64,000 nucleotides of DNA, taken from Cytophagales bacterium (GTDB taxonomy: Bacteria > Bacteroidota > Bacteroidia > Cytophagales > Thermoflexibacteraceae). The first letter of the stretch is position 1; each line of letters starts with the position of its first letter. The position numbers and the translations under genes were made by a program. Under the pieces are notes generated by a model. The model was not told the origin of the DNA. It saw nothing but the letters and a program-made list of their open reading frames with translations, and did no database searches. The DNA lies in the NCBI GenBank assembly GCA_013299115.1, contig JAAFKA010000014.1, forward strand, positions 1 to 64,000, in the 5' to 3' direction. Shown piece by piece: positions 20,949-27,542 of the stretch.

Positions 20949-21078
20949 CACCAAAAATATTTTTAAAAAGTGTAAAAAAAACACCAACCTTTGTGTGTTT
21001 TTTACGTTAAGATAATTAAGTTTGCAAAATGCTTGCTTAGTCAAAGCAAATTTTGTATTTAGCCCCCTAACCCCCAAA
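20949..21078. repeat. Direct repeat A (~130 bp) carrying a Bacteroidetes-type promoter motif (TTTG ... TAAGTTTG)
   Basis: Nearly identical to 24785-24914 (one mismatch noted). It lies 124 bp upstream of the 21202 start codon. Confidence 0.9.
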
Positions 21079-21201
21079 ATAATTTAATAGACTGGGGAAA
21101 GCCAAACTCCTAAATATTGATTTAGTAGTTATATTTTAATTTTGCCTATTGCTTGATTTTAATTTTATTTTCTATGAAATTGCAAAACCTAATTTAATCA
21201 A

Positions 21202-21819
21202 ATGAGTAGCAATAGCATAGCAAGAGAATTTATTTTGGCAGCAGAAAGGCACAAAGTAGTTTGTGAAAAGTTGTTGGCTATGCCTGAATTAGATAATTTA
21301 CGCCCAAATAATAATGGTAGTTATCCTATTGAGGACTTAAAATTACCTCAAAAGTATATATTGTCAGATATTTACTATTTAACTGGTTACATTATTGAAT
21401 GTTCTTGCTGTGCAGCTATTTATACCCACTATCCAGACTTAAATGACAAAAAGGCAATAGGGGCAACAGTAAAGGATAAAGAAAGAAAATTACGTCAAAT
21501 AGAATTTAGTACCGAAGCACCAAGCTATTTCAGTATTTGTGGCATAGGTAATCATAGTTTGCATCATTTTACAAAATTTTCTTCATTTTTTGAAAAGCCT
21601 AAAATACCACTATTAGACGGAGAGGAAACAATATTTAGTACAAACCATTGCTATGATTTGTACGACTGTTTTTATGCAGAAATTAGATATGCTCTTAAAG
21701 CTGTGCCAAACAAACGTAATCTGTACCCTACAATAATTTTAAATTATGAAAAAGTGAGTAATTTTCATAAAATTAGTTGTGAAATATACTCATCAGTAAA
21801 AAAGACCTTTAAAATATAA
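21202..21819 (+). CDS. hypothetical protein (205 aa), first gene of the repeat-flanked cassette
   Basis: Clean ORF ending 5 bp before the next gene. No family recognised. Confidence 0.55.
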   Translation: MSSNSIAREFILAAERHKVVCEKLLAMPELDNLRPNNNGSYPIEDLKLPQKYILSDIYYLTGYIIECSCCAAIYTHYPDLNDKKAIGATVKDKERKLRQIEFSTEAPSYFSICGIGNHSLHHFTKFSSFFEKPKIPLLDGEETIFSTNHCYDLYDCFYAEIRYALKAVPNKRNLYPTIILNYEKVSNFHKISCEIYSSVKKTFKI

Positions 21820-21824
21820 AGTAT

Positions 21825-24784: not shown

Positions 24785-24914
24785 CGCCAAAAATATTTTT
24801 AAAAAGTGTAAAAAAAACACTAACCTTTGTGTGTTTTTTACGTTAAGATAATTAAGTTTGCAAAATGCTTGCTTAGTCAAAGCAAATTTTGTATTTAGCC
24901 CCCTAACCCCCAAA
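24785..24914. repeat. Direct repeat B (~130 bp), promoter-bearing
   Basis: Copy of 20949-21078. It lies 124 bp upstream of the 25038 start codon. Confidence 0.9.
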
Positions 24915-25020
24915 GGGGGAATGCCCACCCAATCCTCCCCAAAGGAGAGTTTTTTAGCCCTCCCCTTTGGGGAGGGTTGGGTGGGACTTAAATTCCCCCT
25001 TTGGGGGTTAGGGGGCTTTT
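24898..25020. repeat. ~120-bp GC-rich imperfect foldback (two ~55-bp inverted arms with a ttttttag loop) followed by a T-rich tract
   Basis: gccccctaacccccaaagggggaatgcccacccaatcctccccaaaggagag / ccctcccctttggggagggttgggtgggacttaaattccccctttgggggttagggggc. The left arm overlaps the end of direct repeat B. It lies in the 5' leader of the MVP-like gene. Confidence 0.8.
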
Positions 25021-25037
25021 CTAAACCATTTATTTTT

Positions 25038-27542
25038 ATGACAGACACCAATAGAGAACGTGATTTGGTACTTGCACCAAACGAATATGCTTTTATTTCC
25101 GACCAAACCAAAGGCAATATCAATGTCTATGTAGGTCCTTACAAAACAAGTTTGGCAAATACAGACAGACCTGTAACCTTTGATGCCGACAGCAAGAGGT
25201 TTGAGAAAAAACTCTTGGAAGAAGCCACCCAAAACTTTACCATTGCACCCGAAGGCTGGTATGTGGTGCTAAAAAATCCCGCAAGAGATGGAAACCAGCC
25301 TAAAACAGGCACAACCAACAACCTGATTGAGTTAAATATTGGGAGAAAGGTCAATATTCCTGGTCCCATTTTCTTTGCCCTGTGGCCAGGACAGATGGCA
25401 AAAGTTATTCCAGGACATGATTTGCGGTCAAATCAATACCTCTTGGTGCGTGTGTATGACGAGGACGAAGCCCGCAAAAATTGGAAAAAGGCAGTGATGA
25501 AAACCAAAACCAATACCGACGGGGCAGAAACTTCGCCTGATGATGTATTGGGTACAGGCGAAATTCCCGAACTCACGATAGGTAAAATGTTGATTATCAA
25601 GGGTTCTAATGTTTCGTTTTACATTCCGCCTACGGGCATTGAGGTCTTGCGAGATGAAGTGGGCAATTATGTGCGTGAGGCTGTAACCTTAGAAAGATTG
25701 GAATATTGTATTTTGCTCGACGAAAACGGAAACAAAAGATTTATTCAAGGTCCCGCAGTAGTTTTTCCTGAGCCAACCGAAGATTTTATTTCAAAAGGTG
25801 GTTTGCGGAAGTTCAAAGCAATAGAATTGAACGAAATGACAGGCTTGTATATCAAGGTCATTGCCCCTTACAAAGAAGGCGACAGGGAATACAAAGAAGG
25901 AGATGAGTTATTTCTCACAGGCAAGGAGCAAATGATTTATTACCCACGCCCCGAACACGCCTTAATCAAATATGGCAACAAAGAAAGACATTATTCGCTG
26001 GCAATTCCGCCCGGTGAAGGTCGTTATGTGTTGAACCGCAAAACAGGTAAAATATTTTTAGTCAAGGGTCCCGCCATGTTTTTGCCCGACCCACGAGAAT
26101 TGGTATTGGTTCGCCGAATTTTATCTACCAAACAGGTGCAGTTGTGGTTTCCAAACAACGCAGAAGCCTTAGCTTACAATGCAAAATTGGCTGAAATGCA
26201 GAAAAAAGACAACAACGCCAACGACTATTTGGAATTGCCAAAAATGGAGGAAACGCAAATTCAACAAAGCAATGTTGCCAATTCGCCTTCCTTGTCTAAT
26301 ATGGGAGAGCAAAGACACCAAATGCGTAAAAAAGAGGCAACCTCCAAAGAGGTGGCAAGTGATGAATTTAGCAGAGATAGCAGCTATACGCCGCCGCGTA
26401 CCCTTACCTTAGACACGAAATATGACGGGGCTGTTACCATAGATTTGTGGACAGGCTATGCGGTGTTGGTCGTCAGCAAAACAGGTACACGCAAAGTGGT
26501 GGCAGGACCTCAAACCTATTTATTGGAATATGACGAAAATTTGGAGGCTGTTCACTTATCAACAGGCACACCAAAAACTGATGACAATTTGCTGAAAACA
26601 GTCTATTTGCGGGTGCTTTACAACAAAGTTTCTGATATAGTGCCTGCCGAAACCTCCGATTTCTGCCAAGTAAGCATCAATCTTTCTTATCGTGTGAATT
26701 TTGAGGGAGAACCCGAAAAATGGTTTAACGTAGAGAATTATGTCAAGTTCCTCACCGACCACATGAGGTCAGTCATTCGCAATGCAGTCAAAAAACATTC
26801 GGTTATGGATTTTTATAGCAAAGGCATAGATGTTTTGCGAGATGTGATTTTGGGTGTGGCAACCGAAGGCAACAAAAGACCAGGTCGCACTTTTGCCGAA
26901 AATGGTATGCGGATTTATGACGTAGAGATTTTGGATATTGCCTTGGGCGATGCCAACATAGAAAATTTGTTGATTGCAGCCCAACAAGATGTGGTAAAAC
27001 AAAATCTAAAATTGTTGTCCGAACAAAGACGTTTGGAATTTACTCAACAAAACGAAATTGTGATACGCCAGATTGCCGAAACCCAATCGGAAACACGCCA
27101 AAAAACCGTCGAGTTGCAGAAAGCAGAAACCAATAAAACTTTGGAATTGGATTTGGCAAAAATAGAGGCTTTGACACAGGCAGAGGCAAAGAAAATCAAT
27201 GCAACCTTAGCCAATCAGGGTATTTTGTCGCAAATCCAAAATTCAGAATTGCAACGCAAAAAAGAGGCAGAGCAACTGCTGATAGACGTGCAGCAGCAGA
27301 AATTAGCCCAAGAATTGCAGAAAATAGCAGCCGAAGTACAGGCAGTGGTGAGCAAAGCAGGAGCAGTTTCTCCCGATTTGATAGCAGCCTTGCAAGCCTT
27401 TGGCGACAAAGCCCTTGCCGAAAAAATGGCAGACAGCATGGCTCCTTTGGCTATTTTAGGCGGAAAATCTATTGCCGAAGTCTTTGGTAATTTGCTCAAA
27501 GGTACGAAGTTGGAAAATGTGTTGGGGGCGGGGAAGGAGTAA
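25038..27542 (+). CDS. major vault protein (MVP) homolog
   Basis: Recurrent GP..Y/F..P.E repeat motifs (YVGPYKTSL, FIQGPAVVFPEPTE, VKGPAMFLPDPRE, VAGPQTYLLEYDE). A shoulder/SPFH-like segment (VSINLSYRVNFEGEPEKWFNVENYVKFLTDHMRSVIRNAVKKHSVMDFYSK) aligns to human MVP LQLAYNWHFEV...[39 protein letters not shown], recalled from memory. Long C-terminal coiled coil. The ORF-track N-terminal extension covering the palindrome was discarded. Confidence 0.7.
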   Translation: MTDTNRERDLVLAPNEYAFISDQTKGNINVYVGPYKTSLANTDRPVTFDADSKRFEKKLLEEATQNFTIAPEGWYVVLKNPARDGNQPKTGTTNNLIELNIGRKVNIPGPIFFALWPGQMAKVIPGHDLRSNQYLLVRVYDEDEARKNWKKAVMKTKTNTDGAETSPDDVLGTGEIPELTIGKMLIIKGSNVSFYIPPTGIEVLRDEVGNYVREAVTLERLEYCILLDENGNKRFIQGPAVVFPEPTEDFISKGGLRKFKAIELNEMTGLYIKVIAPYKEGDREYKEGDELFLTGKEQMIYYPRPEHALIKYGNKERHYSLAIPPGEGRYVLNRKTGKIFLVKGPAMFLPDPRELVLVRRILSTKQVQLWFPNNAEALAYNAKLAEMQKKDNNANDYLELPKMEETQIQQSNVANSPSLSNMGEQRHQMRKKEATSKEVASDEFSRDSSYTPPRTLTLDTKYDGAVTIDLWTGYAVLVVSKTGTRKVVAGPQTYLLEYDENLEAVHLSTGTPKTDDNLLKTVYLRVLYNKVSDIVPAETSDFCQVSINLSYRVNFEGEPEKWFNVENYVKFLTDHMRSVIRNAVKKHSVMDFYSKGIDVLRDVILGVATEGNKRPGRTFAENGMRIYDVEILDIALGDANIENLLIAAQQDVVKQNLKLLSEQRRLEFTQQNEIVIRQIAETQSETRQKTVELQKAETNKTLELDLAKIEALTQAEAKKINATLANQGILSQIQNSELQRKKEAEQLLIDVQQQKLAQELQKIAAEVQAVVSKAGAVSPDLIAALQAFGDKALAEKMADSMAPLAILGGKSIAEVFGNLLKGTKLENVLGAGKE

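Follow-up and report, generated by a model that had tools for sequence, protein, structure and literature searches.

What is a pair of tightly linked genes, encoding proteins of 205 and 979 amino acids, doing between long, nearly identical direct repeats just upstream of a gene for a vault (MVP)-like protein? Viewed on their own, the repeats suggest a mobile unit, the large two-NTPase product suggests a conflict system, and the neighboring gene suggests a partner for a vault-like shell. The best explanation, to which we assign a probability of about 60%, is that the cassette is a horizontally acquired, strain-variable two-gene operon and a fused form of the candidate anti-phage system PDC-M28, which in this freshwater Cytophagales bacterium occupies the promoter/leader of the MVP-like gene and is flanked by a 132-nt target duplication. 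Coordinates below refer to the window, meaning the whole 64,000-nt stretch of DNA that was analyzed.

19412–20788, minus strand: left flanking chromosomal gene, outside the cassette; 458 aa from the ATG at 20788 (open reading frame list and translation)
20947–21078, plus strand: direct repeat R1, a duplicate of the MVP upstream region that now lies 5' of the cassette
20990–21024, plus strand: Bacteroidetes-type promoter-like motif TTTG-N23-TAAGTTTG in R1, found by pattern search; putative promoter
21079–21201, plus strand: left end of the cassette and leader
21202–21819, plus strand: small gene, 205 aa, PDC-M28A-related HEPN-fold family
21825–24764, plus strand: large gene, 979 aa; N-terminal domain, KGGVGR ParA/MinD-like NTPase, disordered linker, AAA+ NTPase, and helical/winged-helix region
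21825–22124, plus strand: N-terminal alpha/beta domain of the large protein (residues 1–100); no family match
22203–22814, plus strand: KGGVGR-variant ParA/MinD-like domain (residues 127–330), with the P-loop KGGVGR at 22230–22247
23274–24362, plus strand: second P-loop ATPase, AAA+, ORC/Cdc6/archaeal-ATPase-like (residues 484–846), with Walker A GSKGTGKT at 23373–23396
24522–24761, plus strand: C-terminal helical and probable winged-helix-like region (residues 900–979; AF2 secondary structure, pLDDT ~90)
24765–24782, plus strand: right end of the cassette, 18 nt from the stop codon to R2
24783–24914, plus strand: direct repeat R2, which is the native copy of the MVP upstream region
24897–25017, no strand assigned: nested GC-rich palindromes in the MVP leader (inverted repeats I1 and I2)
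25038–27542, plus strand: MVP-like gene, 834 aa (Pfam MVP_shoulder 2e-30, Vault_3 2e-9); neighbor of the insertion site, not a functional partner

Occupied and empty alleles of the insertion site

A repeat search of the window finds R1 and R2 to be 132 nt long, 98% identical, and spaced 3836 nt apart, with differences at only two positions, 20950 (A/G) and 20985 (C/T). The repeat tail, AGCCCCCTAACCCCCAAA, occurs only in R1, R2, and a palindromic partner, with 0 occurrences expected by chance. R1 is identical to the single repeat copy of contig L165, from a sister sample, and the core motif of R2 also precedes MVP in five further Cytophagales genomes (L012, L018, L027, L046, and L079). Rather than belonging to the cassette, the repeat derives from duplication of conserved DNA that lies natively upstream of MVP.

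L165 carries the empty site: the left flank, a single repeat, the palindromes, and then MVP, with flanks on both sides that are 100% identical to the window. This exact empty site establishes the cassette as a present-or-absent insertion whose limits are those of the repeats, and a cassette-less allele exists. A sequence-only reading of this DNA had described near-identical repeats bracketing exactly two genes, the second starting 5 nt after the first ends (21819 to 21825), and had read the layout as an insertion delimited by them; the 132-nt repeats with their two mismatches, and an allele that joins both flanks through one repeat copy, bear out each of these points. Repeat and empty site together correspond to a target-site duplication, of a length that is atypical and varies between sites.

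The empty allele was read from a de Bruijn-graph contig, which is unlikely to be a chimeric path through the repeat. For the occupied allele, Logan contig L164 supports the left junction, and Logan contig L001 corresponds to window positions 21049–24816, with cassette ends that run into the repeat. The exact 458-aa left-flank protein, which has no family match, is present on Logan contigs L164, L165, and L166. The cassette gene is recorded in samples SRR9948930, -32, and -33 and is absent from the record of -34. The GC content of the cassette is 30.3%, against 39.1% for the remaining window, and the same bias is seen at seven other loci; by this composition, the cassette looks foreign in origin. 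The 3.7-kb unit is a recent acquisition.

The promoter-like motif of R1 recurs in R2 at 24826–24860, and a pattern search for TTTG-N23-TAnnTTTG gives 22 matches in the window, where 7.3 would be expected. As had been observed earlier, R1 and R2 each end 124 nt before an ATG (21202 and 25038). The two 123-nt stretches between repeat and ATG are unrelated in sequence, so the equal distance is read as coincidence. The last ~75 nt before the small gene (about 21125–21201) are conserved with the L002 and L005 cassettes; the cassette brings its own upstream stretch, common to homologous cassettes elsewhere. The proposal that one promoter module drives both the cassette and the MVP-like gene stands insofar as each repeat copy contains a promoter-like motif, but the module is native to MVP and the cassette has a conserved leader of its own. 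The 18-nt right end of the cassette shows no similarity to the right ends of L002 or L005. On its right side, the repeat extends 18 nt into the outer left arm of the palindromes, which are also found on L165.

A KGGVGR ParA-like and AAA+ fusion with a HEPN-fold partner

In the large protein, a KGGVGR ParA/MinD-like domain precedes an ORC/Cdc6-like AAA+ ATPase. Its first NTPase domain has the ParA/MinD fold, and across 62 homologues the P-loop SYKGGVGRTT (K136, G137, G138, G140, R141, and T143), the A' motif (D163 and D165), and Walker B (D290) are invariant. The deviant Walker A motif KGGxxK[ST], with its two lysines, is not retained, as the second lysine is Arg in 62/62 aligned homologues. 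The second P-loop, GSKGTGKT, is invariant in the same set at G517, K519, G520, G522, and K523, as is its Walker B residue, D671. The initial description of a P-loop Lys-to-Arg substitution with intact A' and Walker B motifs, joined to a second Walker A/B domain, was accurate. The protein scores 129.2 bits against NF047398, "KGGVGR-motif variant AAA ATPase" (curated cutoff 90), and 43.5 bits against NF047389, "P-loop ATPase, Sll1717 family" (cutoff 75), to which it appears only distantly related. No published function was found for either family, and homologues are named "AAA family ATPase", "MinD-like", or "BcsQ" in public records.

Two models of PDC-M28, a three-gene PADLOC "phage defence candidate" (Payne et al., bioRxiv 10.1101/2024.01.29.577857), match the large protein: PDC-M28B (PDLC04559) at 1.7e-28 over residues 121–330, and PDC-M28C (PDLC04561, an ORC/Cdc6-like AAA+ with a winged helix) at 2.7e-19 over residues 484–846. 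PDC candidates occur embedded in BREX, DISARM, RM type I, or Hma systems (bioRxiv 10.1101/2024.01.29.577857), and such embedding in other defense systems is the only ground on which PDC-M28 was nominated. With the small gene as the putative A component, the cassette has the A, B, C order of PDC-M28; unlike the three-gene form, B and C are fused here in a single 979-aa ORF, a length common to more than 1000 homologues. Because the large protein matches both PDC-M28B and PDC-M28C, the cassette is assigned to a B+C-fused form of this candidate defense system, in line with its first interpretation as an uncharacterized conflict or defense module. The HMM searches place the large protein, through PDC-M28B, PDC-M28C, and NF047398, but give no PDC-M28A match at E values up to 10 for the small protein of the window; the link to PDC-M28A (PDLC04558) runs through 11 of 79 small-family members (best E value 1.5e-5) rather than through the window's own protein.

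The small protein, once described as having no recognizable family, has a four-helix HEPN fold, and its family overlaps PDC-M28A; no Pfam HEPN family matches it. H17, Y59, G62, Y63, I65, E66, and H118 are invariant in the family, and R162 and Y163 nearly so. In the 79-sequence alignment, R162 is followed by Y163 and by no conserved His 4–6 residues downstream. With this canonical Rx4-6H motif absent, the small protein is at most a putative RNase. Compared with the HEPN effectors MNT-HEPN toxins, Csm6, AbiV, ApeA, and HEC-08, the protein lacks Rx4-6H, conserves H17, E66, H118, and R162/Y163 instead, and carries 45 extra residues between helices 2 and 3.

A literature search found no experiment or paper covering the family formed by this pair. 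Predicted conflict systems include "inactive MinD/ParA-like" domains fused to STAND ATPases (PMC7159879). Like those of Kaur, Burroughs, Iyer, and Aravind (2020; PMC7159879), the cassette combines a MinD/ParA-like domain, predicted to be impaired in hydrolysis, with a STAND/AAA+-type NTPase, and its locus is mobile and variable; the likeness is by description, and the vWA-MoxR or peptide-processing genes at the center of those systems are absent from the cassette.

Distribution and proposed function of the pair

A small-family ORF lies directly upstream of every full-length large homologue with upstream DNA (~45 loci), with the sole exception of L125, a weak full-length match. These loci, which include Desulfonema, gut metagenomes, and a Pantoea plasmid, always differ in context. 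Across phyla the two genes stay paired, their GC content is low, and their surroundings are unrelated. The large-protein family comprises more than 1000 proteins of such length in Bacteroidota, Desulfobacterota, Vibrio, Pantoea, and gut metagenomes. Some neighbors of the pair are defense or mobility genes (SIR2, AbiE, DRT, DpdF, WYL, methyltransferases, ParE, and integrases) and many are housekeeping genes. The window itself contains a HEPN/nucleotidyltransferase pair at 28741–29459.

Comparison of the L002, L005, and window cassettes reveals a mosaic in which the N-terminal domain (residues 1–100) varies together with the small protein. Its breakpoints map within the conserved KGGVGR domain and close to the 3' end, and the AAA+/winged-helix half is the swapped part in L002. 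Cassettes exchange internal segments by homologous recombination. The co-variation of small protein and N-terminal domain comes from this one mosaic, and in a set of 35 loci the correlation is equally strong for all segments (Spearman ~0.59).

In a working model, the large protein would act as an NTP-driven sensor or switch. The AAA+/winged-helix half, being the part exchanged in the L002 mosaic, is assigned to recognition of an invader cue. The ParA-like half, in which the signature lysine is kept and the catalytic lysine is replaced by Arg, may serve as a nucleotide-dependent switch for dimerization or nucleoid binding that hydrolyzes slowly or not at all. The HEPN partner may dock on the N-terminal domain of the large protein, to be released or activated as an RNA-targeting abortive-infection effector.

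The same components could instead form a selfish addiction module, toxin–antitoxin-like, or an anti-plasmid/ICE conflict system, in which the ATPase restrains a HEPN toxin and the pair persists by post-segregational killing and not by phage protection. The HEPN fold, the plasmid-borne pair that adjoins a tyrosine recombinase, the frequent proximity to toxin–antitoxin genes, and the patchy, low-GC distribution all fit this alternative. Against it, a ~1000-aa partner with two NTPase domains far exceeds known antitoxins in size, the empty allele indicates that loss of the cassette is tolerated, the PDC-M28 models derive from genes embedded in defense systems, and no phage-borne copies of the pair were found; we consider it unlikely, though plausible.

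Movement of the cassette and its MVP-like neighbor

At three independent sites, namely the MVP leader, the 3' end of an alpha-2-macroglobulin (A2M) gene, and L087, the pair lies between direct repeats derived from the target, with lengths of 132, 54–58, and 52 nt; no flanking repeats were found at about 28 other pair loci. Like cis-mobilizable or integrase-less islets with att-like direct repeats and Campbell-type integrants, the cassette is a precise present-or-absent unit between long direct repeats whose empty site keeps one repeat copy. It differs from them in that its repeats are target DNA, unlike at each site, and in that it has no integrase in or beside it in the window and no tRNA target. 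By RecA-type recombination between the flanking repeats, the cassette could be lost precisely and return as a 3836-bp circle. It is improbable, but conceivable, that the cassette is a recombinase-less defense islet that follows an undescribed route, entering sites with 40–132-nt target duplications, possibly from hairpin-forming palindromes or terminators, and cycling as a 3.8-kb circle. If so, the duplication would preserve the promoter or 3' end of the adjoining gene.

Self-mobilization, in which the cassette's own protein or proteins drive insertion with long staggered target cuts and so produce 40–132-nt target-derived repeats at independent sites, is quite improbable. The repeats at the MVP leader, the A2M 3' end, and L087 are what it predicts, and the precise unit contains no other gene, but no transposase, integrase, or nuclease domain was detected in the cassette proteins. 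Conserved cassette termini and terminal inverted repeats are likewise lacking in comparisons of the window, L002/L005, and L007; the varying repeat lengths, the loci without repeats, and the merely occasional occurrence of integrases as neighbors also speak against it.

It is very improbable that the large protein is an ordinary housekeeping ParA/MinD-family member acting in partitioning, division-site placement, or secretion-system assembly. Unlike the deviant-Walker-A ATPases ParA, MinD, Soj, FleN, and BcsQ, it invariably carries Arg where the catalytic P-loop lysine would be, its ParA-like domain is part of a 979-aa protein carrying a second ATPase, and no ParB, MinE, or centromere partner is found in the cassette. 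Scores for the ParA, MinD, and BcsQ equivalogs fall far below cutoffs (ParA_partition, 24.5 bits against 180; minD_bact, 20.7 against 212.9). These scores and the present/absent polymorphism contradict such a role, and the variable contexts, foreign GC, and absence of the cassette from some genomes also speak against it.

The suggestion that the double ATPase and the MVP-like shell act together, with the ATPase as a TEP1-like vault NTPase or a ParA-type positioning factor co-regulated through the shared promoter repeat, draws on the adjacency of the pair to MVP and on the promoter-like repeat before both units in the window, but it fails and is extremely improbable, since the pair is missing from the 10 kb around all 71 MVP loci of other genomes, the called-gene tables for the examined cassette loci show no MVP-like gene, a MAG with an 88% identical MVP holds its pair beside A2M instead, and L165 has MVP without the cassette. 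The adjacency to MVP is incidental, and a tempting link between an ATPase and a bacterial vault protein is removed as a question.

With the fused PDC-M28 operon as the preferred reading, the pair represents a widespread family (more than 1000 proteins of the large protein's length) and a compact two-gene construct for cloning. A HEPN-fold partner, together with PDC-M28 B and C in one chain, yields a testable model that pairs an NTPase sensor with an effector targeting RNA. A ParA fold whose P-loop lysine is invariantly Arg offers a case for how a hydrolysis-impaired ParA module may serve as a switch, and the occupied and empty alleles, which differ exactly at target-derived repeats, provide a natural before/after pair for the integrase-independent gain and loss of defense islets.

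The cassette and the MVP upstream region

The locus confirms a layout proposed by the sequence-only reading, in which near-identical direct repeats bracket exactly two tightly linked genes. Two repeat copies, R1 and R2, enclose exactly two ORFs, both on the plus strand.

Features of the cassette locus
20947-21078: repeat copy R1, 132 nt
21202-21819, plus strand: small gene, 205 aa
21825-24764, plus strand: large gene, 979 aa, starting after a 5-nt gap
24783-24914: repeat copy R2, 132 nt, 98% identical to R1, start-to-start spacing 3836
25038-27542: next gene 3', a vault-protein (MVP-like) homologue (Pfam MVP_shoulder 2e-30, Vault_3 2e-9)

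R1 and R2 are mismatched only at 20950 and 20985. Each stops 124 nt short of an ATG, an equality ascribed to chance because the two intervening 123-nt stretches are unrelated. Sequence comparison indicates that the repeat is native DNA from upstream of the MVP gene and is foreign to the cassette. In five further genomes of Cytophagales its core of ~45 nt (AAGTGTAnnnAAAACACnAACCTTnGTGT...) is found 100-230 nt 5' of the MVP start, and a scan of 170 fetched loci found it beyond these only in L164, L165 and L167, contigs of the same locus. The element, AAGTGTA-N3-AAAACAC-N-AACCTT-N-GTGT...TACGT, holds a GTGT-N8-ACAC palindrome and has no Rfam match; a role as operator or leader element in the control of bacterial MVP expression is possible.

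Copies of the ~45-nt element
Window: 20960-21005 and 24796-24841
L012: 2855-2883
L018 (Thermoflexibacter ruber): 9866-9894
L027: 3477-3505
L046: 5750-5778
L079: 6300-6328

The proposal that one promoter module serves both the cassette and MVP holds in part. A Bacteroidetes-type promoter consensus, TTTG-N23-TAAGTTTG, is present in both R1 and R2, a pattern enriched three-fold across the window (22 observed vs 7.3 expected), but the repeat is MVP upstream DNA and not the cassette's. The cassette has a conserved upstream stretch of its own, ~75 nt long (about 21125-21201), which it has in common with the cassettes of L002 and L005, two loci whose genomic context is unlike the window's. A sigma-70 scan, the wrong promoter type for Bacteroidota, gave a count not above shuffles.

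The MVP leader contains nested GC-rich palindromes (24897-25017), and the right edge of the repeat lies 18 nt inside their outer left arm. In this AT-rich genome, the outer arms (26 nt) match at 100% and the inner arms (26 nt) at 92%; the palindromes occur in the occupied and empty alleles alike and are missing from the MVP leaders of related genomes. In an Rfam scan of the locus, the palindromes gave hairpin noise below threshold and nothing else matched. Further nested palindromic elements lie between genes at 3844-3923, 60259-60513, 61005-61125 and 63453-63636, and one 26-nt arm, TGTAGTGTGGACTTCAGTCCACACAT, recurs at two distant sites with differing inserts between the arms. They have the look of a repeat family of REP or MITE type in this genome. 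Elsewhere in the window, two adjacent same-strand ORFs of near-equal length (41030-43963, 977 aa; 44256-47183, 975 aa) may be tandem paralogues.

Presence, absence and mobility

Sister-sample Logan contigs were retrieved by exact-protein look-up of the left flanking gene, for which only the ATG-start 458-aa version is on record; the 472-aa ORF start and the MVP protein gave no exact match. Contig L165 (SRR9948934, 4948 nt) carries the 458-aa gene, a single repeat copy of the R1 variant, the palindromes and MVP, in that order, with both flanks 100% identical to the window. By its sequence, L165 represents the precise empty site; the cassette is thus present or absent exactly at the repeat boundaries, a point the sequence-only reading proposed to check. 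The allele is unlikely to stem from a chimeric assembly path crossing the repeat, as three independent k-mer sets would then have to be absent from a contig that is otherwise continuous. L164 (SRR9948932) is the occupied left junction, and its R1 shows the R2-type base at 20985; this swapped SNP state relative to the window is consistent with crossing-over or gene conversion between R1 and R2. L001 (SRR9948930), a 3768-nt contig matching 21049-24816, comprises the cassette with ends extending into the repeat, the pattern that branching of an assembly graph at a repeat would give. The small protein is recorded in samples SRR9948930, 32 and 33, with no record in 34. The cassette has a GC content of 30.3% vs 39.1% for the remaining window, and a low-GC bias is also found in seven other loci.

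Flanking repeats recur at a site following an alpha-2-macroglobulin (A2M) gene, where the pair is flanked by direct repeats of 54-58 nt (91-93% identity) in L002 and of 40-43 nt (98-100%) in L005. There, the A2M ORF has its true 3' terminus, stop codon included, in the upstream copy. At this site (L002 9259-9300 and 13004-13050, with L005 equivalents), the two repeat copies are followed by terminator-like hairpins with T-runs that differ from each other: at the left end of the cassette the hairpin comes after the genuine A2M stop codon, and the other comes after the downstream copy. A third flanked locus, the human gut metagenome contig L087, has a 52-nt direct repeat (94%; 4801-4851 and 8719-8770) that may be another target-derived duplication. 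Its copies lie just 5' of the small gene and ~500 nt 3' of the large gene, the latter overlapping the 5' portion of a 137-aa ORF on the minus strand. As a universal feature of the pair, flanking repeats were rejected, since they are absent from about 28 of 31 independent loci.

The ends of the cassette differ from site to site and carry no terminal inverted repeats, no recombinase domain was detected in the cassette, and the window contains no tRNA genes and therefore no tRNA-type att site. The flanking repeats are thus target-derived, and they provide a substrate for precise loss and re-integration through homologous recombination. A self-mobilising element is unlikely because neither a recombinase nor conserved ends were found.

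The two proteins

All sequence motifs quoted for the large protein in the sequence-only reading are present and invariant across 62 homologues: KGGVGR, with arginine replacing the catalytic lysine; the A' aspartates D163 and D165; Walker B D290; and, in the second P-loop GSKGTGKT, G517, K519, G520, G522 and K523, together with D671. The protein scores 129 bits against NCBIfam NF047398 ('KGGVGR-motif variant AAA ATPase', cutoff 90; residues 127-329), 43.5 bits and thus below the cutoff of 75 against NF047389 ('Sll1717 family', residues 496-737), and matches PADLOC models PDC-M28B (1.7e-28) and PDC-M28C (2.7e-19). Pfam searches with separate pieces (N-terminal 125 aa, C-terminal 493 aa) gave no match, and a sequence search of solved structures found ParA P-loop matches only. 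An AF2 model (pLDDT 85) has five parts.

Parts of the large protein in the AF2 model
Residues about 1-100: N-terminal alpha/beta domain
Residues about 125-440: ParA/MinD-like domain
Residues 441-468: disordered linker
Residues about 480-800: second P-loop domain
C-terminus: helical region with a winged helix

The large protein has over 1200 significant homologues, mostly of 930-1030 aa; the KGGVGR domain is also found by itself in other architectures that lack the small partner (L127-L163). A housekeeping ParA role, such as chromosome partitioning, is contradicted by failed equivalog scores, by the arginine P-loop and by the presence/absence polymorphism.

The small protein, described at first as having no recognisable family, indeed has no match in Pfam, NCBIfam or PADLOC when scanned alone, but 11 of 79 family members match PDC-M28A (best E 1.5e-5), and it is HEPN-fold, set beside TT1696, MNT-HEPN toxins, Csm6 and AbiV. 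The Rx4-6H motif is missing from it. Within the family, H17, Y59, G62, Y63, I65, E66 and H118 are invariant and R162 and Y163 nearly so. Pfam matched none of the 79 members, and a solved-structure sequence search returned noise only.

The two proteins were found to co-occur elsewhere in a survey of 164 sequences (163 fetched loci and the window). About 45 loci hold a full-length large-gene homologue with upstream DNA available, and in all of them a small-family ORF directly precedes it, often overlapping; the exceptions are two genes truncated at a contig end and one weak match. Distant small proteins are homologous by profile comparison (hhalign probabilities 98-99.5%).

L002 and L005 occupy the common A2M site, and identities shift along their cassettes and the window's.

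Protein identities (L002 vs L005; window vs L002)
A2M protein: 93%; not compared
Small protein: 97%; 39%
Large protein, residues 1-100: 94-100%; about 42%
Large protein, residues 100-300: 94-100%; about 93%
Large protein, after residue ~300: 19-60%; 81-98%

These shifts indicate exchange of a ~2-kb tract spanning the linker, the AAA+ domain and the bulk of the C-terminus, with breakpoints that fall within the conserved KGGVGR domain and close to the 3' end. This one mosaic suggests two modules, the small protein with the N-terminal domain and the AAA+ 'sensor' half. Across 35 loci, all large-protein segments track the small protein equally (Spearman about 0.59) and the N-terminal domain is not singled out, so domain-specific co-variation rests on the mosaic.

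Genomic contexts and the relation to PDC-M28

The contexts of the pair vary.

Examples of pair contexts
L007: adjoins a UvrD-like helicase gene
L081: Desulfonema magnum
L169: beside a SIR2 gene
Pantoea plasmid: adjoins a tyrosine recombinase

Defence and mobility genes among the neighbours include SIR2, AbiE, DRT, DpdF, WYL, methyltransferases, ParE and integrases, alongside many housekeeping genes; no homologues were found in the phage genomes searched. Downstream of the window's MVP gene lie a DUF6934 gene (27803-28117) and a HEPN/nucleotidyltransferase (MNT) pair (28741-29459) that matches PADLOC candidates PDC-M05B and PDC-S09, placing MVP in a variable, conflict-gene-rich stretch. A 596-aa protein encoded 3 kb 3' of MVP (30429-32219) has paired homologues (27-29% identity) 5' of MVP in three Riflebacteria/Ozemobacteraceae loci (L023, L024, L069), and its gene could be a real MVP-linked one.

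The operon corresponds, by sequence, to PDC-M28 with B and C fused: these are separate proteins in PDC-M28 and one polypeptide here. PDC systems are 145 candidates (bioRxiv 10.1101/2024.01.29.577857) nominated because they are embedded in BREX, DISARM, RM type I or Hma loci; among them, PDC-M28 is listed as cassette CAS_00115 with a count of 121. We consider it somewhat probable (roughly 60%) that the cassette represents a mobile candidate defence operon of PDC-M28 type that varies between strains, with a double-NTPase sensor and a HEPN-fold effector. The double NTPase would act as sensor and switch, its K-to-R ParA-like domain serving as a switch for dimerisation or DNA binding that hydrolyses slowly or not at all, and would signal to the HEPN-fold partner, the putative effector and possible RNase. 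'Inactive MinD/ParA-like' domains fused to STAND ATPases have been described in conflict systems by comparative genomics (PMC7159879).

A less probable alternative is that the pair is a selfish addiction module. The earlier suggestion of a vault-associated ATPase, by analogy with TEP1, is essentially refuted: neither protein is encoded within 10 kb of MVP at any of 71 MVP loci (one genome per species), and in the MAG GCA_947457925.1, which has an 88% identical MVP (L010), the pair (large protein 85% identical to the window's) lies elsewhere, directly after an A2M gene (L004).

An NTPase with a HEPN-type partner in a mobile islet is already known as a PADLOC candidate; the fused two-gene form, the HEPN partner and the unusual insertion signature are not described in the literature searched, where no relevant paper on KGGVGR, PDC-M28 or Sll1717 was found. 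The failed vault link and the prior cataloguing of a related candidate system reduce the interest of the candidate defence operon, while the wide distribution of the cassette family and the insertion polymorphism with long target-derived repeats add to that interest.
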